From Kiritimatiellia bacterium (GTDB taxonomy: Bacteria; Verrucomicrobiota; Kiritimatiellia; RFP12; UBA1067): a stretch of 59,250 nt of DNA. The stretch lies in contig JAZSLQ010000089.1 of assembly GCA_045535455.1 (NCBI GenBank), forward strand, positions 1-59,250, given 5' to 3'. The notes beneath the pieces are model-generated. The model made no database searches. It saw only the letters and a program-made list of their open reading frames with translations, and had not been told where the DNA came from. Of this stretch, positions 2,418 through 18,054 are shown piece after piece. The position numbers and the translations under genes are program-made. Position 1 is the first letter of the stretch. Each line of letters begins with the position of its first letter.

Positions 2418-3458
2418 ATGCAGTTGATCGATGAGATTCTTGAGTATCTTCAGTACCATCCGATGTCCAGCCGTCAGGATGTCGAAGGACATCTTTCTAG
2501 CAAAGTCAGTTCGGCAACGGTGAAACGTCAGATTGCCAGAGGCATTGAAGACGGACTCGTCGTCTCGCACGGCAACAATCGATCAACCGTCTATGCCATA
2601 ACACCGAAGGCCCATATCCTTCGGACCGTCAACCTCGACTCCTACTATGCCATAGACATCGACAAAAGAGATGTCCAGACTGGCTACAACTTCGATTTGA
2701 TTCGCACGGAACTGCCGAAGATCGACATCTTCTCCGCTGACGAAAAGGCGCGGTTGGACGAGTGCCAGAAACTCTTCACGTCGCACATGATGGAAATGGT
2801 GCCGGGATCAGTTGCGTACAACCGGGAACTCGAGCGTCTCGGAATCGATCTGAGCTGGAAGTCATCGCAGATAGAAGGAAACACCTATACCTTGATCGAG
2901 ACGGAGACGCTGCTCAAGGACCTCAAGGAAGCGAAGGGGCGTACACACGCGGAAGCCCAGATGCTCCTGAACCACAAATCCGCTCTGAAGGCCATCATTG
3001 CAAATCCCGGTTATTTCGAGAGGCTTTCGCTTGCGCGGATTGAGGACATACATTCCGTCCTGGTCGAAGACATGGGCGTTGAACCGTCGTTGCGCCATCG
3101 TCGCGTAAGGATCACTGGCACGAAGTATCAGCCGCTCGATGTAGAATCGCAGATACGGGAAGCTGTCGATGACATGTGCGCGCTGATCAACGGCAAGGCC
3201 GATCCGTATGAAAAGGCGCTGCTGGCTTTGCTTCTCATTTCCTACATCCAGCCGTTCGAGGATGGCAACAAGCGGACGAGCCGCCTTGTGTCGAATGCCC
3301 TGCTGCTCGCTTACGGACATTGTCCGCTCACGTTCCGCTCGGTTGACGCGAACGACTACCGCGCGGCGCTTCTGCTTTTTTACGAGCAGAACAACCTCTC
3401 GGCGTTCAAACGCATTTTCGTCGAACAGGCGGAATTCGCCGTTCACGAGTATTTCTGA
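2418..3458 (+). CDS. Fic family protein with N-terminal wHTH (paralog 1)
   Basis: Fic motif variant 'IQPFEDGNKRTSR', 'SSQIEGNT' segment, wHTH-like first ~65 aa, AAGGAG RBS. Confidence 0.9.
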   Translation: MQLIDEILEYLQYHPMSSRQDVEGHLSSKVSSATVKRQIARGIEDGLVVSHGNNRSTVYAITPKAHILRTVNLDSYYAIDIDKRDVQTGYNFDLIRTELPKIDIFSADEKARLDECQKLFTSHMMEMVPGSVAYNRELERLGIDLSWKSSQIEGNTYTLIETETLLKDLKEAKGRTHAEAQMLLNHKSALKAIIANPGYFERLSLARIEDIHSVLVEDMGVEPSLRHRRVRITGTKYQPLDVESQIREAVDDMCALINGKADPYEKALLALLLISYIQPFEDGNKRTSRLVSNALLLAYGHCPLTFRSVDANDYRAALLLFYEQNNLSAFKRIFVEQAEFAVHEYF

Positions 3459-3569
3459 CGAGAAGAGCCAGAGGGAATATGATACGATCCTTTATAATAC
3501 GCTATTTCAGGCATTGCCGCGACGGTGAAGAGCGAGCGGAACATGCGCAAACAGAAGGATGGGATGTCA

Positions 3570-4376
3570 ATGAAACTTGAAACAGAGAACGTCAAGGAGA
3601 CCGAGGCGAGCGCGGAGCTCATCCGCGAATTGATGGCGGATGACGTGAGACGCGGCAACTGGCTGATTCTCATGCACGACGATGACGATGCGGCGTTCAT
3701 GCAGATTGCCTTTGACGATCATCCCGACGGCATCGACCTTGAATACCGCGAAGGCGCGGACAAGCCGCTGTACCACTGCAAGCGTCCGGTTCTGAGACTT
3801 GAGGCTGAGAACGCGCTCCTCGACTACCTTGACGGAATAGATACATGGAAGCATCGCTTTGAATGGGAGGTCGAGGAGGAGTTTGGCGGTGCATGCGGCT
3901 CCATCAGAAAGTTCGTTCCCGGACCAGTCCTCTTCGTCGCCATAGTTGCGGCCGTTGTTGCCGCCGTCGTCAATATCGGGAAGCTGCCGCGCAACATGCG
4001 CCTTTTACCGGTATTTGTGATCATTCTGGTGTTTCTCGTCTTCCACATTTTACGCTGGGTGAAGGCCAAGCCTGAAAAGTTCAAGACGTTGGACGATCTG
4101 GACGACGACGACGGTGGAATCGACTGGCGCGAGACTGATGCGAAGGACGTCGTAGTGGAGACCCGCGACGGATGGGCGGTTCTCATGGACAATGTCGCTG
4201 TGCATGAGGCAAAGGCGGCGGCGCAAGCGCTTGAGGATGCTCACATAAGATGCCGACTCGACATCCTCAGCGAAGATCGTTCCTATCACCGCTACGGAAA
4301 CGGTGGACTTGGAACGCGCATGTGCGTGCTCGTCGCGCCGGAAGACTACGAGAAGGCGAAAAAGGTGGTGTTGTAG
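3570..4376 (+). CDS. Hypothetical membrane protein with a DUF2007-like C-terminal domain
   Basis: Two hydrophobic helices in the middle; C-terminus 'EAKAAAQALEDAHI...VLVAPEDYEKAK' resembles DUF2007. Start uncertain (3525/3543/3564/3570). Confidence 0.6.
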   Translation: MKLETENVKETEASAELIRELMADDVRRGNWLILMHDDDDAAFMQIAFDDHPDGIDLEYREGADKPLYHCKRPVLRLEAENALLDYLDGIDTWKHRFEWEVEEEFGGACGSIRKFVPGPVLFVAIVAAVVAAVVNIGKLPRNMRLLPVFVIILVFLVFHILRWVKAKPEKFKTLDDLDDDDGGIDWRETDAKDVVVETRDGWAVLMDNVAVHEAKAAAQALEDAHIRCRLDILSEDRSYHRYGNGGLGTRMCVLVAPEDYEKAKKVVL

Positions 4377-4481
4377 TGTTGCCGTAACCGCCCCTTGCGG
4401 GGGTTCGCAACCCATAGGGACGCGAACACGCCGAGCGAAGCGAGTGCCGAATGGCCAATAAGAAAGTCCAATGGTTTCTGC

Positions 4482-4506
4482 CGCAAAGAACGCAAAGGAC
4501 GCAAGG
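4482..4506 (+). repeat. 9-mer tandem repeat arm (cgcaaagaa/cgcaaagga/cgcaagg)
   Basis: Three units ending 2 nt before ATG 4509. Confidence 0.6.
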
Positions 4507-4508
4507 AA

Positions 4509-4847
4509 ATGGAGCAGAGGGAGTTCAAGTGTCGGATGTGCGGGGCGTGCTGCCGCATAAAGGACGGGATCGTGCGCGTCTCGGACGCGGAGATTGCGCG
4601 CATCGCGGCGTTTCTTGGAATGGATGAGGCCGAGTTCATCAAGCGTGAGACCGAAGTCGCGCCAGACAGGAAAAGCCTGATTCTCAAGAGCCGCCCGGAC
4701 GGCGCATGCGCCTATTTGACGGACGACAATCTCTGCCGCATCAATCCCGTGAAACCCGAGAAGTGCCGAACGTTCCCGTTTGAATGGACCAATCCAGACT
4801 CCGCCGAAGTCTGCTCGGGACTGGCAGAACAGCGAGAAGGGGATTGA
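4509..4847 (+). CDS. YkgJ-family cysteine-cluster (Zn/Fe-chelating) protein
   Basis: 'FKCRMCGACC', 'CAYL', 'CRIN..KPEKCRTFPF' and a terminal Cys. ATG 4509 preferred over 4395. Confidence 0.8.
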   Translation: MEQREFKCRMCGACCRIKDGIVRVSDAEIARIAAFLGMDEAEFIKRETEVAPDRKSLILKSRPDGACAYLTDDNLCRINPVKPEKCRTFPFEWTNPDSAEVCSGLAEQREGD

Positions 4848-6376: not shown

Positions 6377-6408
6377 AATCCTGTTAATCCTGTAAATCCT
6401 GTCTAAAA
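6377..6408. repeat. 9-mer repeat arm (AATCCTGTN x3 + TAAAA)
   Basis: aatcctgtt aatcctgta aatcctgtc taaaa; the same family occurs at 11964, 12670-12753 and 15435-15590. Confidence 0.85.
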
Positions 6409-6430
6409 AGAAATTTGAAAGGAATCGAAT

Positions 6431-9400
6431 ATGAACGATTTTGAAGAGTATTTTAAGGCTGGTGAGCCGGGACGGCGCGGTGGCGTAGGCCTCCTACGTT
6501 CGTGCGCATTGCTATCCTTCGCCTGCATTGGTGCAATGTGTCTTGCGCCGCTGCATTCCGTCGCCGCGACTGAAGCGAAGCCGACTGTCGCAGATTCTGA
6601 AGAGGCGGTTCGTGATTACGACTATGTGTTTCGCGGCGGGGCTGCGGAGCAGGGCGATTGGCTTTCGCCGGGCAACTGGGCTGTGCCTAACGGGAACGGC
6701 GGCTACGCTGCCATTGCCGCCGACAAGACTCCGCAATTTGTCGCCTCCGGGCAGAACCCAGACTGGGCACCGATGCTTCTGGACGGCTCCTTGATGACAG
6801 GCGTGGATGCAGATGGCGACGGGCTTAAGCATGTCACTGCGGCGAGTGAGCTTGAGGGGTATATATTCAGGCTCGGGGTCTATAACAACGTGTCGCTTGC
6901 GATTTCAAGTCTTGCAAAGCTTCAGAAGGATGGATGGATATACGTCGATGCCACGTCGAAGCTGACGATTGGCGGCTTTGGCTCGAAATACAAGGGCGAC
7001 ACGACCGTTCTGCATGTGGCGGCGCGTGAAGGTGTGACGTTTGCCTCGACAGTCGCGTTAGGCGACCTGCGGTTTGCATACTGTTTCGAGGGGGAGGGTT
7101 CGGTCGCGTACAAGGGCGCGGTGACAGGCGGTTCGCATACGCTCCGTGAAGTCGCGCTTTCGCTCTCTCCGGACGTCGCGGGCGGAGCAACATGCGTAAA
7201 GTCCAGGACGCTTGTCACCTACCACGAGTCCAGCTCCATTTCGTTCAGCGTCTCGTCTTCTGTCCGCGTGAACATCGCGGACGCGCTTGGCGGCACTGTC
7301 GCGGCGAACGTGAAGTCGAAAGGTTCGTCACTGTCAGCAATAGGCGACGTGTGGTTCTCGCAGGAACGCAATGCGTTCAAGGTGTATTACGTGGATTATG
7401 GCGAGGATGGCGTGGTCGTGCCGGCGACAGACCGCATGACGGCCATCCAGACGGAGAGCTCCTACTATCGCAACAACACGTTCTTCCAGCCGCTGATCGG
7501 TTTGCGCGTCGACTCGACGAAGGGCGGACAGGTGCTCAAGTCCGTCAAGGCGCGTGTAAGCGACGCCACTGCGATAGGAGCCATCACCGACGTCAAGCTC
7601 TATGCCACCAGTGTTCCCTACTTTGCGCCGGGACTCGCAACCGACTACTGGGACGGAATCTCGAAGACTATCCCGTCAGGGGGGTCGCGCACGATTTCGG
7701 TTTCCTTTTCCGCGTCCAAGGGGCCGAGCATAACCAAGAATACATATTTGTGGCTGGCGGTGTTGATCAACCCGAACGCCCCGGTGCGCGGCGAGATAGA
7801 CGCGGAGATAACGGAAGTCGCGCTTGGCGACGCCACTTCAACAACCAAGCCGCAGATATGGGACCCCTCTCCGGCAGGCGTTGGCGAGATATACCCCTAC
7901 GACTGGCACGTGACTCCGTATTGGCGGATGAACGACTGGACGCTCAATGCGTTGACGGCCCGCCACATGGCCTGTTATACCGACATCATCGCGTTCTACT
8001 GCGTAGTCAAAAACGACGGCACCATCGGGCACGGCAGGAACGGCGAGCAGTTCACCGACGAAAAACTTGCCGCGGCCGTGGCCCGCATGAAGGAGTTGCG
8101 CGGGAACCGCGATGTGCGGATTCTCGTCAGCATCGCGTGGTGCAAGGATGCCCTGCATTCGGTGACGGCCGATCCTGTTCTGCGTAGCCGCATGGCCGAG
8201 AACCTCGCGGCGTTCGTGGATCGCTTCGGATTCGACGGGGTCGACTTTGACTGGGAGTATCCTGAGTCCAAGGCCGACTGGGAGAACTGGTGCCTGGCTG
8301 TCGCAGAGCTCAAACCGCGCCTTTTCGCGCTCGGCGGGGGCAAGCAGGTTTCCATATCCGTGACCGGCTACAGGATGAATCAGGCGGCGAATTCGCTTGG
8401 CGCCGGGAATGCGCTCAAGGGGCTGTTCCAGCAGTGCAACTTTGTCTGCACGATGAGCTACGATTCAAACAGCAGCGACGGCCATGCTCCGCAGTGGCTC
8501 ATGCAGAATGACGTGCAGAAGTGCCAGGATTTCGGCGGACTCAAGAACTGCAAGATTGCGGCGGGCCAGGCTTTCTATACGAACTACTATCCTGACGCGC
8601 CGAACACGCAATACGGCTTCAACTGGGTGGTGAACAACTATCCGCAGTACGTGGATTCCACCGACGTGTTCCAGGCGGACGACGGCAGGACGGTTACGTA
8701 CAACTCGCTCAAGACCATACGCAAGAAGGTGGCGTGGTGCCGTGAAAGGGGAGTGGGCGTTATGATATGGGCGAACGAAACGGACGTTGCGATTGCGCAT
8801 CCCAAGTCGGCCACGCGGGCCTTGTCCTCGCAGATCGGACCAATGACGCGGGGGCGAGAAGTCGCCGTCGCCGGACCTGAAGACTGGGTCGAAGCGGCGG
8901 CGACAGACGGCACGATAGAGCTGCTTGCCGACATTTCGCTCGATGCTGAGACGTTGCGCCCCGGCGAGATATGCGGAACGCTCAACGGCAACGGCCATAC
9001 GATAGTGCTTGTTGGCGGCAACGAGCCGTTATGCGGAAGGGTGACCGGCACGATAAGCAACCTTACGGTGGTGGCGGTGGATGGTTTCACCGGCACGGCG
9101 CTTCTGGCGGACGATGCGGAGGGCGCGACACTTGTTGACGTCGTCCAGAGCGACATGCGCGAAACGAGCGCTGTCGCAACGGTGGTGCGGGCTCATCCGC
9201 GACTCACCCGCGGACTCGCGCGCGAATCGCTCATCGGTCTTCGGTTCGACAACAACTGGGGCGGGGCCTACAGTGCGTTCGAGGTTAAGTTCCGGCTGGT
9301 CAACTGCACCAAGGCGGACATTTCCGACATTCGGCTTTGGCGGCAGCCGTTCGATCCCGTGCCGTATGCGTTCTACGAAGCCCAGGCCAAGCAACTTGCG

Positions 9401-11941
9401 CAGGCCGTCGTGGATGCGGACGCCGGGGCTACGGAGTTTACCGCCTCGTTCGCTCCCGGTACAACTCAGATCTATCCCTGTGTCGGTACGCGCCCTGAGA
9501 GCGACTATCTGTGGGTCACTGCGACGATAAACCCTGGCATCTTGCCGGACGCCGAGATATGGGTCTCGATCCCGACGGCTGAGATTACGCTGGGGAATAG
9601 CCGCTACGTGGTTGTCAACGGCGCAGAGACCGCGCCGCATCGGATTCTTCCGTTCGTCTACCAGGTGGGGGCGTACATGCGGCAGAACTTGATGTCGGCT
9701 GTTTCCGCGAGCAAGTTGGAGGATGCGAGCGCCGAACGCATTGCGGGGCTTACCGACATAATCTTGATCGACGACGTGCGCGTAAAGTATGACTCTGGGC
9801 GGGATTTGTTCACGACAACCTGGGATGGTCGCGGGCGCGACAACACGGCGCAGGCGGCGCGCGTTCGGACACTGCGCAACCTATACAATCCCAAGTGCAT
9901 GGTTCGCGCCTGTCTTACCAAGGGCGACAACGTAATCACAGTGGACGGCGTGACGGGCTATCCCATCGCCTGCGCGGCCGCGTCGGCCGCTCGGCGGAAA
10001 CAGCTGGTGGAGTCGATTTTCTCGCTGCTCGAGGAAAATAGCTTGGACGGGCTCGATATCGACTGGGAATATCCCGGCGACCACGTTGACGGGACTGGGC
10101 AAGTGGATCGCGACTGGAACAGCTACGGGCTTTTGCTGCGCGACCTGGCTGCGGCGTTTTTCGACCGTGGGTATGTGCTCTCCTTCTGCTCCAACCTTGG
10201 CTACAGGATGGCTCCCAATGCCAGATGGGGTGCGTTCCATGCGGCTGACTTCATCAATTCGATGGCTTATGGCAGTTCGCCGCTCAACGCATCGCCGCAG
10301 GTGATGAAGACGGGAATCTCCGTATGCACGTCGCGCGGCGTTCCGAAGCGACGCATAGTGGTGGGTCAGGCCATGTACGCCTATGAGAACCAGAATCCGG
10401 GCTGGTCCAGTGTGGCGGGGTGGCTGGAGGCGGCGTATCCTGGCGACGTTTCGCGGCGCTGGGATGCGGATTTGGTGATGCGTAACGGCACCACCAAGGA
10501 GACGTTCGAGGGTCCGTCGAGCTACCACGCCAAGTGCAACTGGTGCCGCGCAAACGACTACGGCGGCGTGATGAGCTGGGGCTACTACACCGACGTGGCG
10601 TGGAACGATCCGGACCTGATGTCACTTGCCCGCCATCAGGCGAACGCCATCTGGCCGGAAACGGCATGGTCGCCGCCCGATCCACCTCAGGACGCGGAGG
10701 GCACGTATCTGCTCGACAGTGAAGACGATTTCCGCTGGTTGCGTACGCACGGCGACGTGTCGGCAAGACTGACGACCGACATCACGCTCGCGCACGACCC
10801 GCTGCCCATTGAGGAGTTTTCCGGCACGCTCGACGGCGACGGTCACGCGCTGATCGTGCCGGCAGACGTGTGGCTGACGTTCGACGATATGCCGGCGCTT
10901 ATCCGCGTTTTGACGGGTACGGTGAAGGATCTCCGCATCGACTTCGCAGGGCGCGCGGTCAACCGGGCGTCGCGCTGGAATGACAGGACGGCCGAGACTT
11001 CGGAGAACACGCTTTCGTCTGACGATCACCACACTGCGGTCTTGGCCGCCATCGTGCGCAATGGGGCGATGGTGGATGGCGTTGAGCTGATTTTGCGCGA
11101 GGGTTCGGAAGTGCAGGGGCCGACCTATGTGGGGGGACTTTTTGGCAGTGTGTTCTGTGCGGCTGGTTATCATGTCGAGGTCCGCAACTGCCGCGTACAG
11201 GTGGGCGGCACCATTCGTGCGCTCGCCCGCAACACGGCCGAGGGCGACATTTATCCAGCCAATGTCACCGTGGGTGGGCTGGCGGGGTGGATAAGCTGTC
11301 CGGGATCGGGCCTGGTCGCGATTTCCAACAACGTAGTGGTGCTCGAGACTACGGGACGCATCGCCACCGAGACCGGCGCCACCACGTCGGCGGGAGGCAT
11401 GGTGGGCCATGTCAACAACGCCAATCCGGTTTTACGGGACAACTTGACTTACGTGGCGGCCGGAGCGACAGTGGCGAACAACCATGTTTCGGCGACGGAC
11501 AGCCTGAAGCGCTCCTACGGGGCGGCTTCGTGGAACAGTCCCTCGGGCGCCAATCTTTCGCCGGGTGCGGTGGTGCTGGCGAAGGGGGCCGCAAAGTTGT
11601 CGGCGGGCGTGGGCGGCATCAGCGAAAAGGGCGTGGCGGCCTATGTCTTGACGGACGAGCCACAGGACGAGGATACGCACTTGCAAATCGCGGCGTTCGA
11701 GCTTGCGGCCGGAGGGACGGTTTCGCTCGTCGTGGAGAATGCAGGCGACGACGACGTAGGAATATCTACGGCTGCGCGTCCGGTCGTGCAGTATCTTTCG
11801 CTGGATGGCGGCGAGGCGTCGGTGTTGGAGACTGTGCGCCCGGATGCCATGTTGCTCGAGAACGGGGCGATGTCGTTCGCCATGCCCGCCCCATCCGTCA
11901 ACCATAATCCTACGTTGTTCAGGGTGTTTCTTACGCCATAA
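6431..11941 (+). CDS. Large multidomain, probably secreted, protein with two GH18 (chitinase/ENGase-like) domains
   Basis: Two intact DxxDxDxE motifs: 'FDGVDFDWEYP' and 'LDGLDIDWEYP'. N-terminal hydrophobic stretch; AAGGA RBS; 1836 aa. Confidence 0.85.
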   Translation: MNDFEEYFKAGEPGRRGGVGLLRSCALLSFACIGAMCLAPLHSVAATEAKPTVADSEEAVRDYDYVFRGGAAEQGDWLSPGNWAVPNGNGGYAAIAADKTPQFVASGQNPDWAPMLLDGSLMTGVDADGDGLKHVTAASELEGYIFRLGVYNNVSLAISSLAKLQKDGWIYVDATSKLTIGGFGSKYKGDTTVLHVAAREGVTFASTVALGDLRFAYCFEGEGSVAYKGAVTGGSHTLREVALSLSPDVAGGATCVKSRTLVTYHESSSISFSVSSSVRVNIADALGGTVAANVKSKGSSLSAIGDVWFSQERNAFKVYYVDYGEDGVVVPATDRMTAIQTESSYYRNNTFFQPLIGLRVDSTKGGQVLKSVKARVSDATAIGAITDVKLYATSVPYFAPGLATDYWDGISKTIPSGGSRTISVSFSASKGPSITKNTYLWLAVLINPNAPVRGEIDAEITEVALGDATSTTKPQIWDPSPAGVGEIYPYDWHVTPYWRMNDWTLNALTARHMACYTDIIAFYCVVKNDGTIGHGRNGEQFTDEKLAAAVARMKELRGNRDVRILVSIAWCKDALHSVTADPVLRSRMAENLAAFVDRFGFDGVDFDWEYPESKADWENWCLAVAELKPRLFALGGGKQVSISVTGYRMNQAANSLGAGNALKGLFQQCNFVCTMSYDSNSSDGHAPQWLMQNDVQKCQDFGGLKNCKIAAGQAFYTNYYPDAPNTQYGFNWVVNNYPQYVDSTDVFQADDGRTVTYNSLKTIRKKVAWCRERGVGVMIWANETDVAIAHPKSATRALSSQIGPMTRGREVAVAGPEDWVEAAATDGTIELLADISLDAETLRPGEICGTLNGNGHTIVLVGGNEPLCGRVTGTISNLTVVAVDGFTGTALLADDAEGATLVDVVQSDMRETSAVATVVRAHPRLTRGLARESLIGLRFDNNWGGAYSAFEVKFRLVNCTKADISDIRLWRQPFDPVPYAFYEAQAKQLAQAVVDADAGATEFTASFAPGTTQIYPCVGTRPESDYLWVTATINPGILPDAEIWVSIPTAEITLGNSRYVVVNGAETAPHRILPFVYQVGAYMRQNLMSAVSASKLEDASAERIAGLTDIILIDDVRVKYDSGRDLFTTTWDGRGRDNTAQAARVRTLRNLYNPKCMVRACLTKGDNVITVDGVTGYPIACAAASAARRKQLVESIFSLLEENSLDGLDIDWEYPGDHVDGTGQVDRDWNSYGLLLRDLAAAFFDRGYVLSFCSNLGYRMAPNARWGAFHAADFINSMAYGSSPLNASPQVMKTGISVCTSRGVPKRRIVVGQAMYAYENQNPGWSSVAGWLEAAYPGDVSRRWDADLVMRNGTTKETFEGPSSYHAKCNWCRANDYGGVMSWGYYTDVAWNDPDLMSLARHQANAIWPETAWSPPDPPQDAEGTYLLDSEDDFRWLRTHGDVSARLTTDITLAHDPLPIEEFSGTLDGDGHALIVPADVWLTFDDMPALIRVLTGTVKDLRIDFAGRAVNRASRWNDRTAETSENTLSSDDHHTAVLAAIVRNGAMVDGVELILREGSEVQGPTYVGGLFGSVFCAAGYHVEVRNCRVQVGGTIRALARNTAEGDIYPANVTVGGLAGWISCPGSGLVAISNNVVVLETTGRIATETGATTSAGGMVGHVNNANPVLRDNLTYVAAGATVANNHVSATDSLKRSYGAASWNSPSGANLSPGAVVLAKGAAKLSAGVGGISEKGVAAYVLTDEPQDEDTHLQIAAFELAAGGTVSLVVENAGDDDVGISTAARPVVQYLSLDGGEASVLETVRPDAMLLENGAMSFAMPAPSVNHNPTLFRVFLTP

Positions 11942-11963
11942 GCGCACGGGCCGTCGCGGGAGG

Positions 11964-11996
11964 TTTCTAGACAGGATTTACAAGATTTACAGGATT
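11964..11996. repeat. 9-mer repeat arm, opposite orientation to the arm at 6377
   Basis: tttctagacaggatttacaagatttacaggatt. Confidence 0.85.
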
Positions 11997-12013
11997 GAGA
12001 AAGAAGTAGGAGT

Positions 12014-12685
12014 ATGAATAGAAAGAAGATTGTTAAGTTTGCGGCTTGGGGAATTGTGGCCGCACTTGTCGCGTGGGGCGTGTCGGCGATTGCCGTCTAT
12101 TGGGTGTCGGCTGGGCGCGTGTTCGACAAGGCATCTGATGTTCCGCACTGCCGCGCCGCCGTTGTGTTGGGTTGTCGCAAGTCCCTGCCGAATGGACTCT
12201 TGAACCTTTATTTCACGCGGCGCATCGCCGCTGCCGCCGATCTTTACAAGGCGGGCAAGGTGGATTGCCTCATTGTCAGCGGCGACAACCATATCAAGGA
12301 GTATGACGAGGCGTCGGACATGAAGGAATCTCTTGCCGAGGCGGGCGTTCCTGCGGATCGCGTCGTCTGCGACTATGCGGGATTTCGCACGCTTGATTCT
12401 GTAGTGCGGGCGAAGAAGGTGTTTGGGCTTGATTCGTTCATTGTCGTTTCGCAGAAGGATCATGTTCGCCGCGCGGTCTTCACGGCGCGTGGCTTCGGCT
12501 GCAACGCATACGGCTATGCCGCGCCAGATGTCAACGGACGCTATTCAATCAAGACTACAATTAGGGAGCAACTTGCCAAGATCGCGGCGGTTCTCGATGT
12601 GATTCTTCGCCGTGGTCCTAAGTTCCTCGGCCCCCGAGAACTTCTGCCGGATGGTTCTCAGGGGAATGTTTTTAGACAGGATTAA
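12014..12685 (+). CDS. sanA: SanA/YdcF family protein (DUF218)
   Basis: N-terminal TM helix; 'LIVSGDN', 'DYAGFRTLDS' and 'IVVSQKDHVRRA' motifs; TAGGAG RBS. The stop codon lies within the repeat arm. Confidence 0.85.
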   Translation: MNRKKIVKFAAWGIVAALVAWGVSAIAVYWVSAGRVFDKASDVPHCRAAVVLGCRKSLPNGLLNLYFTRRIAAAADLYKAGKVDCLIVSGDNHIKEYDEASDMKESLAEAGVPADRVVCDYAGFRTLDSVVRAKKVFGLDSFIVVSQKDHVRRAVFTARGFGCNAYGYAAPDVNGRYSIKTTIREQLAKIAAVLDVILRRGPKFLGPRELLPDGSQGNVFRQD

Positions 12686-12753
12686 CAGGATTGACAGGAT
12701 TGTGGGGATGAATGGATGTCTTAATCTTGTAAATCCTGTAAATCCTGTCTAAA
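12670..12753. repeat. Complete palindromic 9-mer-arm element
   Basis: Left arm ttttagacaggattaacaggattgacaggatt (12670-12701); right arm aatcttgtaaatcctgtaaatcctgtctaaa (12723-12753). Confidence 0.85.
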
Positions 12754-12817
12754 CAAAACCGATAGGGGCAAATTCCATAAATACACGAATGGCATATGCG
12801 TGGGGGGCGTGGAAGAG

Positions 12818-12905
12818 AATCGGTCGTAAAGATGGCGGATTTTGGGCAAAATCGGTCGGCATGGCGACCGATTTTGTGGTATAATATGTGACGGACCGAC
12901 CGATT
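12818..12905. promoter_or_regulatory. Four-site symmetric operator-like array and extended -10 promoter of Fic gene 2
   Basis: AATCGGTCG at 12818-12826 and 12850-12858; CGACCGATT at 12865-12873 and 12897-12905; TGGTATAAT at 12877-12885. Confidence 0.75.
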
Positions 12906-12916
12906 AGAGTAAAAGT

Positions 12917-13951
12917 ATGACGAATCTTGATAAGGTGATTGAGTATTTGCACTATCATCCGGGCGCAAGTCGCCGCGAATTGATGGAGGCACTGGTTCTG
13001 GGAATCAAGGACACCCAGATGAAAGTGCTTTTGGGTGATGGTATAGCCAACGGCGACATCCGCGTTGAGGGCAAGGCGCGGGCGACACGCTATTTCATAA
13101 CGCCCAAGGCGCAGCTCTTGAGGACGATTGATCTTGGATCGTATTATGCTGTCGAGACCGACAAGCGTGAGATGCAGACCTCGTATAATTTCGAGTTGAT
13201 CCGTGACGTGTTGCCGAAGGTGGAGATATTCACGAAGGACGAGTGCAAGTTCCTTGTCGACCGGGAGAATGCATTTTTGGCGCGCATGAAGGACTATCCG
13301 AAAGAACTCTATGCGAAGGAGATGGAACGGCTTGGTATCGACCTCAGCTGGAAGTCGTCGGAGATCGAGGGCAACACCTATACGCTGTTGGAAACGGTTA
13401 ATCTCCTGAAGGACAAGATCGAAGCCGAGGGCAAGAAACGCGAAGAGGCGATAATGCTCTTGAACCACAAGGCGGCGCTTAAGGCCATTGTCGAGCATAG
13501 TGCGTATTTCAGAGATCTTTCGCTTGCGCGGATGGAGGACGTGCATTCGGTGCTGATCGAGGAACTTGGCGTCGAACGCAACCTGCGCCACATAAGGGTT
13601 GGCATTTCGGGGACGAGGTATCGTCCGCTTGAAGTTGAGTCTCAGATACGCGAGGCAGTGGAGGACATGTGTGCCCTCGTGAACGGCAAGAGCGACCCTT
13701 ACGAAAAGGCGCTCTTGACGCTGTTGCTTATCGCCTACATTCAGCCGTTCACGGACGGCAACAAGCGTACGAGCCGTCTGATGGCGAATGCGGTGTTGAT
13801 TTCGCGTTCGCTTTGCCCTCTGTCATTCCGCACGGTAGAGGCAAATGACTATCGGGCGGCATTGCTCCTGTTCTACGAGCAGAACAATCTCTCGGCGTTC
13901 AAGAAGATGTTCCTTGAGCAGGTTGAGTTCGCGATGAAGGAATACTTCTGA
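12917..13951 (+). CDS. Fic family protein with N-terminal wHTH (paralog 2)
   Basis: 'IQPFTDGNKRTSR'; collinear and visibly similar to 2418-3458 from about residue 60 onward. Confidence 0.9.
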   Translation: MTNLDKVIEYLHYHPGASRRELMEALVLGIKDTQMKVLLGDGIANGDIRVEGKARATRYFITPKAQLLRTIDLGSYYAVETDKREMQTSYNFELIRDVLPKVEIFTKDECKFLVDRENAFLARMKDYPKELYAKEMERLGIDLSWKSSEIEGNTYTLLETVNLLKDKIEAEGKKREEAIMLLNHKAALKAIVEHSAYFRDLSLARMEDVHSVLIEELGVERNLRHIRVGISGTRYRPLEVESQIREAVEDMCALVNGKSDPYEKALLTLLLIAYIQPFTDGNKRTSRLMANAVLISRSLCPLSFRTVEANDYRAALLLFYEQNNLSAFKKMFLEQVEFAMKEYF

Positions 13952-13968
13952 ACATGGAGGAATTTGAT

Positions 13969-15450
13969 ATGCCTGTTGATTGCGGATGGCTTGAGTCGTT
14001 TACGAAGCTCGTCGATGTAGTGTGCGGGTGGGTATGGGGATTGCCCCTCGTCGGTGCGATTCTTGTCACTGGGCTTGTCCTTACGCTGTGCCTGCGCTTC
14101 ACTCATATCTTCAACTTGAAGCGTGCCTTCGTCTACATGTTCCACACCGAGGAGGGCGACGAAGTGTCGGGCGAGGTGAGTTCTTTCGCCGCGCTTTGCA
14201 CTGCGCTTTCCGCGACGATCGGCACCGGCAACATCGTTGGCGTCGCGACGGCCATTGGCACAGGCGGCCCCGGCGCGCTCTTCTGGATGGAAGTCGCGGC
14301 GTTCCTCGGCATGGCGACGAAGTATGCCGAAGGACTGCTTGCTGTGAAATACCGCGAGGTGACGCCTGACGGTCGCGTGCTTGGCGGCCCGTTCTACTAT
14401 ATTGAAAAGGGCCTTGGGCATCGGTGGAAGCCGCTTGCCGTGGCGTTCGCAGTCTTTGGCGTGCTTGCAGGCGTCATGGGTATCGGCACCATCACGCAGA
14501 TCCACGGCATAACGTCTGCCGTGCAGCGGTTCTTAGACCCGCAGTTCAACCCCGCGGACATGGCGACTGGCATCGGGCTTTTCGGCACGACTTATTCCGT
14601 GCCGGTGGTGGTTGCAGGCATCGTGGTGACGCTCTGCGTGGGGCTCGTCGTCATCGGCGGCATCAAACGCATCGCCAAGGTGTCGTCCGTCGTCGTGCCT
14701 TTCATGGCGATTTTCTACATAGCCGTCATCGTGCTTTTGCTTCTCGGCAATCTCACGAAGGTGACGGCGGCGATCCAGACGATCGTGCTTGCCGCCTTTA
14801 ATCCGGAGGCAGTCACTGGCGGCGTCGTGGGAACAGTGTTTATCGCGATTCAGAAGGGTGTCGCGCGAGGTATCTTCTCGAATGAGGCGGGCCTTGGCTC
14901 CGCGCCGATTGCCGCCGCCGCCGCGAGGACGAACGAACCGGCGCGACAGGGACTCGTATGCATGACCGGTACCTTCATCGACACAATCGTCATCTGCACG
15001 ATGACTGGTCTTGCGATCGTTGTGACAGGCGCATGGGAGCCGTCGCTCGGGCTCGAGGGCGTCGACATCACGATAGAGGCGTTCAACCGCGGACTTGCCT
15101 TCATCGGCCCCCATTCAGGCATAATCTCGTCATTCTTCCTAATGACTGCGCTTACCTTCTTCGCGTTCACCACGATCCTCGGCTGGAACTACTATTCCGA
15201 GAAGTGCTTGGAGTATCTCGTCGGCACGGAGCGGCAGTGGTGCGTAAAGGCGTTCCGCGTCTTATATGTCGCTGTCGTATTTGTTGGACCATATCTAACC
15301 GTGTCGGTGGTGTGGGGCATGGCGGACGTGTTCAATGGCCTGATGGCTTTCCCGAACCTCATAGCTCTCTTGCTCCTCTCGCCTGTCGTCGCTCGCACGA
15401 CGGCGGACTTCTTCCGCCGCACGAGACAAGAAAGTTTTAGACAGGATTAA
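13969..15450 (+). CDS. Sodium:alanine/glycine symporter family (AGCS) transporter
   Basis: 'TIGTGNIVGVA', 'GGPGALFWM', 'GGPFYYI' and 'RGIFSNEAGLGSAPIA' motifs. GGAGG at 13956-13960 favours ATG 13969 over 13954. Confidence 0.92.
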   Translation: MPVDCGWLESFTKLVDVVCGWVWGLPLVGAILVTGLVLTLCLRFTHIFNLKRAFVYMFHTEEGDEVSGEVSSFAALCTALSATIGTGNIVGVATAIGTGGPGALFWMEVAAFLGMATKYAEGLLAVKYREVTPDGRVLGGPFYYIEKGLGHRWKPLAVAFAVFGVLAGVMGIGTITQIHGITSAVQRFLDPQFNPADMATGIGLFGTTYSVPVVVAGIVVTLCVGLVVIGGIKRIAKVSSVVVPFMAIFYIAVIVLLLLGNLTKVTAAIQTIVLAAFNPEAVTGGVVGTVFIAIQKGVARGIFSNEAGLGSAPIAAAAARTNEPARQGLVCMTGTFIDTIVICTMTGLAIVVTGAWEPSLGLEGVDITIEAFNRGLAFIGPHSGIISSFFLMTALTFFAFTTILGWNYYSEKCLEYLVGTERQWCVKAFRVLYVAVVFVGPYLTVSVVWGMADVFNGLMAFPNLIALLLLSPVVARTTADFFRRTRQESFRQD

Positions 15451-15590
15451 CAAGATTGACGGGATTATGAGAATTCGAGTTGAGAGTTGGAGTTCGAGAA
15501 AGGAAGTCGGAATAATTCCACCCTCCAACTCCAACTATTTTCTCCAACTATCTCTCTTAATCTTGTAAATCCTGTTAATCCTGTCTAAAA
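15435..15590. repeat. Nested palindromic element: outer 9-mer arms, inner GAGTTG/CAACTC arms
   Basis: Outer arms 15435-15466 and 15559-15590; inner arms about 15477-15498 and 15523-15556. Confidence 0.85.
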
Positions 15591-17093: not shown

Positions 17094-18054
17094 CGGTGGT
17101 AAGCCGTTTCATTCCAAGCTTGCGCCATACGAAAGCGAAGTGAAAGAGCTTAAGGCTTCCAGTGCAAGCGTTAGGGCGATTGCGGCTGAGATGTTTGCGC
17201 GGCATGGCATCCAAGTGTCGCACAATGCCGTCGCGTCGTTTTTGCGGACGCATGGTACCAAGCGTCGCAACTTTCTTGACGGAATCGGCGAGGCGAGGCG
17301 AACGGAACTGCTAAAGGCGATTAGGGCGCTTTGGACGCACGACTCTACGGCGATCGAGGGCAATACACTCTCGCTCGGCGATACGATGGCGGTGCTGGAG
17401 TATGGCTTGACGGTGAAGGGGAAGCCGCTCAAGGACCATCAGGATATTGTCGCCCACGCGAACGGCGTTGATTTTGTGCGTTCGCTTCTTGACAAGGGGC
17501 GTATTGCCGAAGCGGATGTCTTGGAGTTGCATCGCATCGTCGTGCCGAATGAAACGCGAGACATATACAAGCCCATTGGAGCGTGGAAGCGCGAGGACAA
17601 TGGCACTTATGGCGCCGAGGGTGGCAGAAGCGTCTACATGCCCTACGCCTCTGCCGATGAAACGCCGAAACTGATGCGCGGCTGGATAAAGGCGTTCAAC
17701 TTGTTGTTTGACGGCATCAAGGGCGCAGACGCTGCGCTTGAGGCGTATTTGTTCGCCCATGTCTCGTTTGTGCGAATCCATCCGTTCTTTGACGGCAACG
17801 GCAGGCTTGCGCGGCTTCTTGCAAATCTGCCGGTTCTCTACGCGGGCTTCCCGCCGATTGTAGTTCCGTCCGAGGCGCGGCTTGAGTACATCCGCGAACT
17901 TTGGGATTACCAGCGCGCGGTGGGCGTAATCAGTCTCGCAAGAAAAGAGCTGCTGCCCGAACCGACACGACTCGACAATCTGCGCCGCCTCATTCGCAAT
18001 TGGTGGCAGACAACTCTCGACCTCGTTGCCGAGGCAAAGGGGAGTTCAAAATGA
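17071..18054 (+). CDS. Fic family protein (canonical motif) with a putative N-terminal HTH
   Basis: 'HPFFDGNGRLAR' and 'STAIEGNTL' motifs; helix-turn-helix-like 'SVRAIAAEMFARHGIQVSHNAVASFLR'. ATG 17071 preferred over TTG 17038. Confidence 0.9.
   Translation: MGRKVVTIGGKPFHSKLAPYESEVKELKASSASVRAIAAEMFARHGIQVSHNAVASFLRTHGTKRRNFLDGIGEARRTELLKAIRALWTHDSTAIEGNTLSLGDTMAVLEYGLTVKGKPLKDHQDIVAHANGVDFVRSLLDKGRIAEADVLELHRIVVPNETRDIYKPIGAWKREDNGTYGAEGGRSVYMPYASADETPKLMRGWIKAFNLLFDGIKGADAALEAYLFAHVSFVRIHPFFDGNGRLARLLANLPVLYAGFPPIVVPSEARLEYIRELWDYQRAVGVISLARKELLPEPTRLDNLRRLIRNWWQTTLDLVAEAKGSSK

Follow-up and report, generated by a model that had tools for sequence, protein, structure and literature searches.

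Selfish repeats that sit in frame within housekeeping genes are, to our knowledge, a textbook matter of Rickettsia essentially alone, and they have never been tied to an enzyme. The Rickettsia palindromic elements (RPEs) were reportedly described by Ogata et al. in 2000 and 2002, and we know of no enzyme that acts on them. They are summarised as short palindromic repeats of multiple families, a large share of which lie in frame in unrelated housekeeping genes (PMC10969869). ORF-bearing intervening sequences of 23S rRNA, found in Coxiella and Leptospira, hold a small ORF (S23p, PF05635) in a hairpin loop (PMC4990558). The function of the GxxExxY proteins, which enter the present analysis as candidate partners of a repeat family, is listed as "Unknown" (PMC3424549).

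Here we examine repeated arms in a 59,250-nt stretch (contig JAZSLQ010000089.1, hereafter the window) of G000, a 3.43-Mb rumen Kiritimatiellae MAG. Like RPEs, the copies also lie between genes, and those within genes are predicted to be read through as extra peptide segments. Unlike RPEs, they belong to free-living gut anaerobes of the PVC group, measure 65-156 bp as against about 100-150 bp, have arms of three codon-phased 9-mers and possess an ORF-bearing nuclease counterpart. Judged by phylum and architecture alone, which both differ, homology to the RPE-1 to RPE-10 consensus sequences is unlikely. The family resembles REPIN-RAYT systems in its many short non-autonomous hairpin doublets with a few copies flanking a small enzyme gene, in a repeat class that co-varies with the enzyme clade and in its patchy phyletic distribution; it differs from them in an enzyme that is a PD-(D/E)XK-fold GxxExxY protein rather than a HUH/Y1 transposase, in arms that are tandem direct 9-mers rather than imperfect palindromes, and in the half of its copies that are intragenic and in frame. 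With MITEs such as Correia/NEMIS, ERIC and RUP it shares small size, terminal inverted repeats, occasional gene fusions and the supply of promoters, ribosome-binding sites or stops to neighbours, but it shows no target-site duplication, no related DDE insertion sequence, and periodic arms. The ORF-bearing form recalls the 23S rRNA intervening sequences, with a small ORF in the loop of a hairpin made by inverted ends, although its copies lie outside rRNA, show no sign of RNase III excision and carry GxxExxY as cargo.

Results

The window holds six arms, each made of three ACAGGATTN 9-mers. All were located where the original prediction had placed them, including the opposite-facing solos on either side of a GH18 gene. 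The ACAGGATTNACAGGATT pattern, allowing up to two mismatches, matched 12 times across the window, as against 0.01 expected from shuffles. The caps TTTTAG and CTAAAA are mutual reverse complements, and therefore belong to the stem and lengthen the palindrome. Together, the six arms make up two full copies and two half copies of one small hairpin element, whose unit structure reads (GGAAGG)TTTTTAG-(ACAGGATTN)x3-loop-(NAATCCTGT)x3-CTAAAACAAAAC. An Rfam scan of the window returned no family match.

Arm 1 is a solo right-type arm on the minus strand (6377-6408), with three AATCCTGTN units read on the plus strand at 6377-6402 and the cap CTAAAA at 6403-6408. It starts 10 nt past the AbiEii stop codon and ends 22 nt ahead of the ATG at 6431, its cap being followed by a conserved leader, AAATTTGAAAG. 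The GH18 ORF (6431-11941, plus strand, 1836 aa) lies between this arm and arm 2, and its initial 16 codons (MNDFEEYFKAGEPGRR) are those with which a Fic gene begins in G008 and G003. Arm 2, a solo left-type arm on the plus strand (11965-11996), has its units at 11971-11996 and an imperfect cap, TTCTAG, at 11965-11970; the two solos thus flank the GH18 gene pointing outwards, right arm to left arm. Downstream of arm 2 come gagaaagaagtaggagt and then the ATG of a DUF218 gene (Pfam DUF218; 12014-12685, plus strand), which extends to pair 3 and takes its C-terminus and stop codon from the pair 3 junction, the stop being the TAG of the cap (given as 12683-12685).

Pair 3, a complete hairpin element (12670-12754), consists of the cap TTTTAG (12670-12675), a left arm (12676-12701), a 21-nt loop, a right arm (12723-12748) and the cap CTAAAC (12749-12754). 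Pair 4 is a complete long hairpin element (15435-15590) with a cap at 15435-15440, a left arm (15441-15466), a 92-nt spacer containing a nested palindrome of GAGTTG-type repeats, a right arm (15559-15584) and the cap CTAAAA (15585-15590). The symporter stop codon TAA (15448-15450) falls within its left arm, and an MGMT-like gene begins 21 nt past its cap. As single-stranded DNA, pair 3 has a folding energy of -21.9 kcal/mol (z = -8.7) and pair 4 of -29.2 kcal/mol (z = -5.4). Conservation of arm length and, apart from the cap variants of arm 2 and pair 3, of the caps, alongside differing spacers, agrees with the original prediction, as does the accessory character of the neighbours, namely AbiEi/AbiEii, the giant GH18 protein, DUF218, Fic, a Na:Ala symporter and the MGMT-like protein.

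A genome-wide count, proposed with the original prediction, gave 72 arms in G000, forming 48 elements (24 pairs and 24 solos). The arm family was found in 26 of 41 relatives and, across the phylum, in 25 of 251 genomes, and a reversed-pattern control had 0 matches in every genome searched; we regard its dispersal as established. An A-type arm is combined with a T-type arm in 17 of 20 pairs, as in ORF-bearing copies, and complementary N positions between partner arms number 3 of 40 against 16.5 expected. Because partner arms differ systematically at these positions, a fold-back origin of the pairs is ruled out. The flanks of the 24 pairs contain no target-site duplications, for which the original prediction had proposed a check, or other direct repeats, and no defined insertion signature; there are also no longer inverted flanks, pair complementarity stopping at the 6-nt caps. 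As a separate observation, G000 also carries PF05635 genes between tandem-octamer arms.

Sites of the family are clearly polymorphic among relatives rather than fixed at orthologous positions, the DUF218 and AbiEii junctions being vacant, filled or different in close relatives. Congeners show empty sites, the same element elsewhere or, in the same loops, hairpins of other 9-mer families, and we take this polymorphism, too, as established. At the AbiEii junction of arm 1, the same arm is present in G008 (contig C121), two units of it only in G003 (C71), no arm in G012 (C212), and a left arm instead in G008 (C104) and G017 (C79); across five genomes, five distinct arrangements of arms and genes follow the same AbiEii stop codon. 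The "arm + leader + ATG" module of arm 2 reappears before another gene in L041 (283-343, 85% identity), where the DUF218/pair 3 junction is identical to that of the window. In L037 and L036 the DUF218 C-terminus differs and the element is absent, the L037 gene having no arm at all. Stretches of the window that are homologous to L041 stop exactly at the arm edges 12701, 15466 and 15559, and the gene content between these edges differs, with Fic in the window and HipBA modules in L041. Homology breaks at the window arms coincide with junctions of toxin-antitoxin-type genes.

The hairpins themselves recur at other loci. Near-copies of pair 3, loop included, occur at 83-88% identity in G013, G018, G014, G011 and elsewhere in G000 (C159). 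The spacer of pair 4 is 97% identical to a sequence in G043 (C179), the whole pair is 79% identical to a copy adjoining the ORF-bearing element of G022 (C242), and a related copy lies at G000:C226:19533-19635. The same arm and loop subfamilies are thus found at non-orthologous sites in different species, and on this sequence evidence whole hairpins appear to spread copy-paste.

With genes called by a crude home-made caller, 23 of the 48 elements lie within ORFs. Their hosts include PyrG, CarA, CarB and PurF-like genes, identities that rest on an alignment of PyrG, on recognisable CarA, CarB and PurF sequence and, for some only, on Pfam. The predicted reading of intragenic copies is ...TGLTGFTGL-loop-NPVNPVNPV.... 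Of the 15 intragenic pairs, 14 have a loop whose length is 1 mod 3, as against 2 of 9 intergenic ones (one-sided Fisher p ~0.0008, calculated by hand). The cap codon TAG occurs in none of 38 intragenic arms, whose cap stops are mutated, compared with 24 of 34 intergenic arms. This in-frame constraint we regard as established. PyrG can be aligned over its whole length to CTP synthases of known structure and retains all catalytic motifs, and the PDB chain shows a 20-residue gap exactly where PyrG carries the insert. Site 1 of PyrG is occupied in G000 only, in two congeners the same element sits elsewhere in PyrG, and other 9-mer hairpin families fill the same PyrG loops. When PyrG was modelled in AlphaFold together with the inserts, the mean pLDDT was 56, too low to position them. 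With the frame open across the insert and the host genes otherwise intact, read-through of the intragenic elements is predicted.

In eight relatives (G010, G012, G013, G015, G018, G022, G027 and G031), ACAGGATT arms, inverted and built of 8-9-nt units, bracket TIGR04256/PF13366 GxxExxY genes, with ORF-less copies elsewhere. The bracketed genes score 135-143 bits on TIGR04256 (cut-off 35), and PF13366 matches reach 147 bits overall and about 125-138 bits for ACAGGATT-armed copies. In this form a gene of ~137 aa for a GxxExxY PD-(D/E)XK nuclease lies between the arms; the final left-arm unit supplies the Shine-Dalgarno AGGA ~7 nt ahead of the ATG, and the ORF runs through the right arm as ...LNPVNPVNPV and ends at the cap TAA, so that arm, Shine-Dalgarno sequence, ORF tail and stop codon form one integrated unit in all eight genomes. 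On a tree of 65 proteins, arm class tracks nuclease clade, with 19 label changes versus 33.9 in shuffled data (0 of 200 shuffles as low), and the ACAGGATT clade has support of 96/90. We consider both the ORF-bearing forms and this arm-protein co-cladogenesis established; the latter would arise equally from plain linkage, the protein not acting on the arms.

Pfam and NCBI name the nuclease family only as PDDEXK_3 and GxxExxY. The residues D66, E76xK78 and Q90xxxY94 of the protein are invariant. Its structural model (pLDDT 85.8) has as top Foldseek matches the restriction-endonuclease-like protein 3ijm, Cas4 (4ic1) and lambda exonuclease, with TM 0.4-0.55. With this restriction-endonuclease-like fold, established as a model, and a D...(D/E)xK motif, the cognate protein falls in the PD-(D/E)XK superfamily and is a predicted nuclease. 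A tblastn search found no cognate nuclease gene in the G000 assembly, so that the window and G000 hold ORF-less copies only; the gene is also absent from several high-copy genomes such as G003 (45 arms) and G014 (24 arms), all of these, like G000, being incomplete MAGs (77-85% complete). A cognate gene is found in 8 of the 26 genomes with arms versus 0 of the 15 armless ones (p ~0.02, recalculated by hand for intact copies), or in 9 of 26 when one decayed remnant is counted (p = 0.015), and this co-occurrence lends modest support to the link. For the ORF-bearing copy of G027, the search for an empty site found none, its flanks being shared by no relative.

Discussion

We consider it probable, at roughly 70%, that the arms are copies of a hairpin-forming selfish repeat, non-autonomous derivatives of a nuclease-bearing hairpin element of Kiritimatiellae. 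The ORF-less hairpins would derive from the nuclease-bearing full-length form in a MITE- or REPIN-like manner. The arm period of 9 nt corresponds to three codons, and two frames are stop-free, TGL in the left arm and NPV in the right, so that copies would persist within genes wherever the loop preserves the frame and the caps have lost their stops. Intragenic copies would then add ~26 residues to tolerant loops. Intergenic copies retain their caps, which often provide the upstream gene with its stop codon and the next gene with its leader or ribosome-binding site. We infer that the nuclease would act on its own arms and mobilise the ORF-less copies, as well as the route by which these would insert. 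A PD-(D/E)XK nuclease is not known to catalyse transposition by itself. The original prediction had seen the arms as ends of a non-autonomous mobile element enclosing genes; the mobile family is largely supported, being dispersed, polymorphic and matched by ORF-bearing counterparts, but the enclosing geometry does not, as each pair is a single hairpin of 65-156 bp.

The original prediction had also offered the arms as substrates for recombination by which the genes in between are shuffled. In its strongest form, this would make them mainly sites for exchanging toxin-antitoxin or defence cassettes, by homologous or integron-like site-specific recombination, with the copies in housekeeping genes as a by-product. 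The homology between the window and L041 that ends at arm edges with different genes between, the five configurations after one AbiEii stop codon and the repeated placement of "arm + leader + ATG" modules before unrelated genes are circumstantial points in its favour, and the causal role of the arms stays conjectural. We nevertheless find this reading unlikely: about half of the copies lie in frame within conserved enzymes, which are not exchanged as cassettes, and any dispersed repeat passively turns into a recombination hot spot. Integron gene cassettes were rejected specifically, since no integron integrase was found (best TIGR02249 score 79.5 bits against a cut-off of 265) and the arms and caps do not fit the R/L boxes of attC (RYYYAAC ... 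GTTRRRY). On the selfish-repeat reading, the dispersed arms would also mark breakpoints for the exchange of toxin-antitoxin-type genes.

A regulatory role, as operators in which each arm offers a DNA-binding protein three direct 9-bp sites, or as terminators or mRNA-stabilising hairpins for flanking genes, would suit the tight fit of intergenic copies between co-directional genes, their provision of stop codons and RBS-like leaders, and the TTGACA hexamer within the unit junction ATTGACA. It is very improbable, however, given copies within PyrG, CarA and CarB at sites that are vacant in congeners, the lack of an Rfam match and an AT-rich stem, when an intrinsic terminator calls for a G+C-rich stem and a 3' U-tract; as a T-run lies 5' and an A-run 3' of the stem on both strands, neither offers such a tract. 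G:U and A:C mismatches are symmetric (27 versus 21) and thus give no sign of selection for a sense-strand RNA helix. Least probable of all, in our estimate, is an independent REP/REPIN- or MITE-type family moved by another enzyme (RAYT/Y1 or a DDE transposase), with GxxExxY genes as frequent passengers or preferred insertion neighbours. Some high-copy genomes do lack a cognate GxxExxY gene, and most genomes hold weak Y1_Tnp-like matches, but these Y1 (PF01797) matches are partial (25-34 bits), lie in G000 on armless contigs and do not correlate with arm counts (22 matches and 0 arms in G038, 0 matches and 15 arms in G011), and a RAYT/Y1 partner was rejected. The arms are not themselves palindromic REPs, target-site duplications were not found in the flanks, and arm and nuclease ORF are fused into one unit in eight genomes.

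Beyond the selfish-repeat reading itself, we tentatively raise the possibility that hairpin elements with periodic arms form a large superfamily, as yet undescribed, which GxxExxY nucleases serve as dedicated enzymes. Every nuclease clade would have an 8-9-mer arm class that it recognises (among them ACAGGATT, CACAAAG, GCGGAG and CGTGTAGA) and would spread ORF-less copies via a hairpin or cruciform intermediate; three-codon phasing, with stops confined to the caps, would adapt the elements to life within essential genes, and they would reshuffle toxin-antitoxin and defence cassettes where genes adjoin.

The family departs from the Rickettsia case in two ways, in its occurrence in free-living gut bacteria and in having a candidate partner among nucleases to which no function has been assigned. 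Its anatomy predicts specific binding or cleavage of the 9-mer arms, with an arm-class specificity that varies by nuclease clade. The repeats are predicted to add peptide segments to enzymes, and they donate stops and ribosome-binding sites and mark breakpoints of toxin-antitoxin islands, which bears on genome annotation, on MAG assembly and on how proteins gain loops.

Results

The six arms of the original prediction, each three tandem 9-mers of the ACAGGATT type ending in a TTTTAG or CTAAAA cap, were all recovered at exactly the predicted positions: as solo arms at 6377-6408 (arm 1) and 11965-11996 (arm 2), and as inverted pairs at 12670-12754 (pair 3) and 15435-15590 (pair 4). The arms are real and non-random, with 12 overlapping matches in the window to a 17-mer pattern spanning two units against 0.01 expected. 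Because the caps are mutually reverse-complementary, they form part of the stem. Folding energies calculated for single-stranded DNA are -21.9 kcal/mol for pair 3 (z = -8.7) and -29.2 kcal/mol for pair 4 (z = -5.4); an Rfam scan of the window returned no match. The surrounding genes are accessory and lie on the + strand throughout, encoding AbiEi/AbiEii, an 1836-aa GH18 protein, DUF218, Fic, a Na:Ala symporter and an MGMT-like protein.

The genome-wide count gave 72 arms in the window's own genome (G000, a 3.43-Mb MAG of 277 contigs, GC 58.7%, 85% complete, with the window as contig C14), arranged as 24 convergent pairs and 24 solos and concentrated on few contigs. Judged by its named relatives, G000 is a Kiritimatiellae bacterium of the rumen. 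Pair loops range from 7 to 92 nt, 13 nt being frequent. Across the stem, N positions of partner arms are complementary in 3 of 40 cases versus 16.5 expected, and 17 of 20 pairs join one A-type and one T-type arm, which rules out a fold-back copy origin of the partner arms. G219, a genome from a different class of the phylum, carries 51 arm copies; its + strand matches, among those listed, all lie within 2.31-3.69 Mb of contig C1, pointing to an orientation bias that follows replichore or gene strand.

Long ORFs of G000, called with a simple codon-bias gene caller, contain 23 of its 48 elements, which translate as ...TGLTGFTGL-loop-NPVNPVNPV.... Loop length is 1 mod 3, the value holding both arms in the TGL and NPV frames, in 14 of 15 intragenic pairs versus 2 of 9 intergenic pairs (one-sided Fisher p ~0.0008, calculated by hand from the counts). 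The cap TAG, an in-frame stop when read in the TGL frame, is retained in 0 of 38 intragenic arms versus 24 of 34 intergenic arms, and solo arms of left and right type number 0:8 inside genes (all NPV) and 8:8 between them. In both frames, the N of each 9-mer unit falls on codon position three.

Host genes on contig C243 of G000 include PyrG, CarA, CarB and a PurF-like amidotransferase. The alignment of PyrG to solved CTP synthases covers the full length and shows all catalytic motifs, and a solved CTP synthase chain has a 20-residue gap exactly where the insert sits; the predicted PyrG model was too poor and was left out of the evidence. In an alignment of 13 orthologues, most congeners have only a short loop where this insert sits. 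Loci L014 and L018, from two further species, bear the ACAGGATT element, with one loop subfamily in common, at a second position in PyrG, and in still other species these two loops hold palindromic inserts of like architecture with different 9-mers (CACAAAGNA, GCGGAGANG and others). Several further in-frame hairpin families with the 3 x 9-mer architecture occupy the same proteins and loops in C243 2787-11423 (PyrG, CarA, CarB, PurF-like) and in the PyrG loci L007-L018, among them CACAAAGNA (peptides HKEHKD / LCELCDLC), CGCAGAG (SASLRLCV / RRDAEAQR), GCGGAGANG and a CACGAAA type.

Four non-homologous sites (CarA and PurF of G000, PyrG of two congeners) share the loop subfamily 'atctgggg..ccccagacccc', and near-copies of the whole of pairs 3 and 4, loops included, lie at unrelated loci in other species at 79-97% identity; entire hairpins have therefore been copied. 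In G003 (C71, L193), the right arm orthologous to window 6377-6402 is built of two units, versus three in both the window and G008, so unit number also changes in place by slippage.

ORF-bearing counterparts were sought through genes of PF13366 (PDDEXK_3; GxxExxY, TIGR04256) and PF05635 (23S_rRNA_IVP). G000 holds one GxxExxY gene (C223:24700-25340, between CACGAAAA-type arms) and two IVP genes (C25:15080-15530 and C20:1-450, between inverted TGTAAAA / CGTAAAA octamer arrays). The inverted arrays around all three consist of other tandem 8-mers, and the three loci represent ORF-bearing hairpin elements from arm classes other than ACAGGATT. ACAGGATT arms themselves flank GxxExxY genes in eight genomes (G010, G012, G013, G015, G018, G022, G027 and G031) from three families of the order. 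Their anatomy is constant: a TTTTAG cap, then the left arm, whose final AGGA lies ~7 nt upstream of the ATG, and an ORF that reads across the right arm as ...LNPVNPVNPV and stops at the TAA of CTAAAA. When 65 GxxExxY cores from 41 genomes were placed on a maximum-likelihood tree, arm class tracked protein clade (19 label changes versus 33.9 when shuffled; 0 of 200 shuffles as low), and a clade with support 96/90 unites six ACAGGATT-armed proteins and one with variant arms, with genomes of different families intermixed. The predicted structure is confident (pLDDT 85.8) with a disordered NPV tail; its best matches are a restriction-endonuclease-like protein, Cas4 and lambda exonuclease, and D66, E76xK78 and Q90xxxY94 are invariant.

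A cognate gene was not found in the G000 assembly and is absent from several other arm-rich MAGs. Intact copies occur in 8 of 26 arm-bearing versus 0 of 15 armless genomes (p ~0.02, recalculated by hand; p = 0.015 with 9 of 26, counting a decayed remnant). A search of relatives for an empty site of an ORF-bearing copy found none.

G027 has exactly two ACAGGATT arms, both belonging to its single ORF-bearing element, an 'autonomous' copy without ORF-less progeny. A 77-nt stretch ~390 nt upstream (L148 9-85; G027:C84:17708-17784) recurs at 77-88% identity in 31 of 31 genomes searched, often multicopy, and is presumably a tRNA gene. At L197 (G013:C28:17262-17310 and 17780-17880), short leader ORFs adjoin the element and end in or cross left caps and arms: MNARLMFARCVAGRFL stops at the cap TAG, and MNMRKRFALGNAGRF... 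continues into the arm. L197 and window arm 2 have the left flank GTCGCGGGA(A)GGTTTCTAG in common, so the left end of this subfamily reaches ~18 nt past the arm.

Discussion

The original prediction offered two readings of the arms, as ends of a mobile element or as substrates that shuffle the intervening genes. For the first, the arms are not termini of a transposon with GH18 or other genes as cargo; the copies are ORF-less hairpins, and a search for target-site duplications found none. Shuffling gains circumstantial support, as breakpoints in an island rich in toxin-antitoxin genes fall at the arms. The DUF218 gene recurs in three other MAGs (92-96% nucleotide, 94-99% protein identity), with long hairpins on both sides in L041 (RUG14632), a right arm upstream only in L036, and in L037 a different C-terminus and an element in neither flank. 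Homology between the window and L041 ends exactly at arm edges (window 12701, 15466 and 15559), with Fic in the window versus HipB/HipA-type and other genes in L041 between the blocks. In L041, the extra gene between arms (6702-7890) is a HipA homologue broken into two overlapping ORFs (Couple_hipA, HipA_C) and therefore probably carries a frameshift; positions 3231-4732 hold a second HipB/HipA pair.

What follows the shared AbiEii stop codon differs among five genomes: a right arm in the window and G008:C121, a two-unit right arm in G003, a left arm and another gene in G008:C104 and G017, and nothing in G012. The DUF218 stop codon is the cap TAG, the symporter stop is a TAA within the left arm of pair 4, and both right arms are followed by a common leader, AAATTTGAAAG, ~20 nt ahead of the next ATG. 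Codons 1-16 of the GH18 ORF (6431-6479; MNDFEEYFKAGEPGRR) match exactly the start of the Fic gene that, in G008:C121 and G003:C71, comes after this AbiEii gene and arm. The annotated GH18 start is probably left over from a rearrangement, and the true one, with a signal peptide, may lie downstream.

Among known systems, in-frame residence within genes likens the ACAGGATT family to Rickettsia palindromic elements (RPEs), and the pairing of repeats with an enzyme likens it to REPIN-RAYT. It nevertheless lacks the features that define these two systems, and likewise those that define MITEs, attC sites and terminators. A Y1 transposase was rejected as partner, since Y1 matches do not follow arm presence, and a search for an integron integrase found none. 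The literature on in-frame palindromic elements mainly concerns Rickettsia (PMC10969869); PDDEXK_3 is listed as of unknown function (PMC3424549), and the few mentions of GxxExxY in the literature searched do not concern repeats.

The co-cladogenesis of arms and proteins could have linkage by itself as its source. In summary, the window arms make up two whole and two half ORF-less copies of a hairpin repeat family phased to codons; in its full-length form, this family encodes a predicted GxxExxY nuclease.
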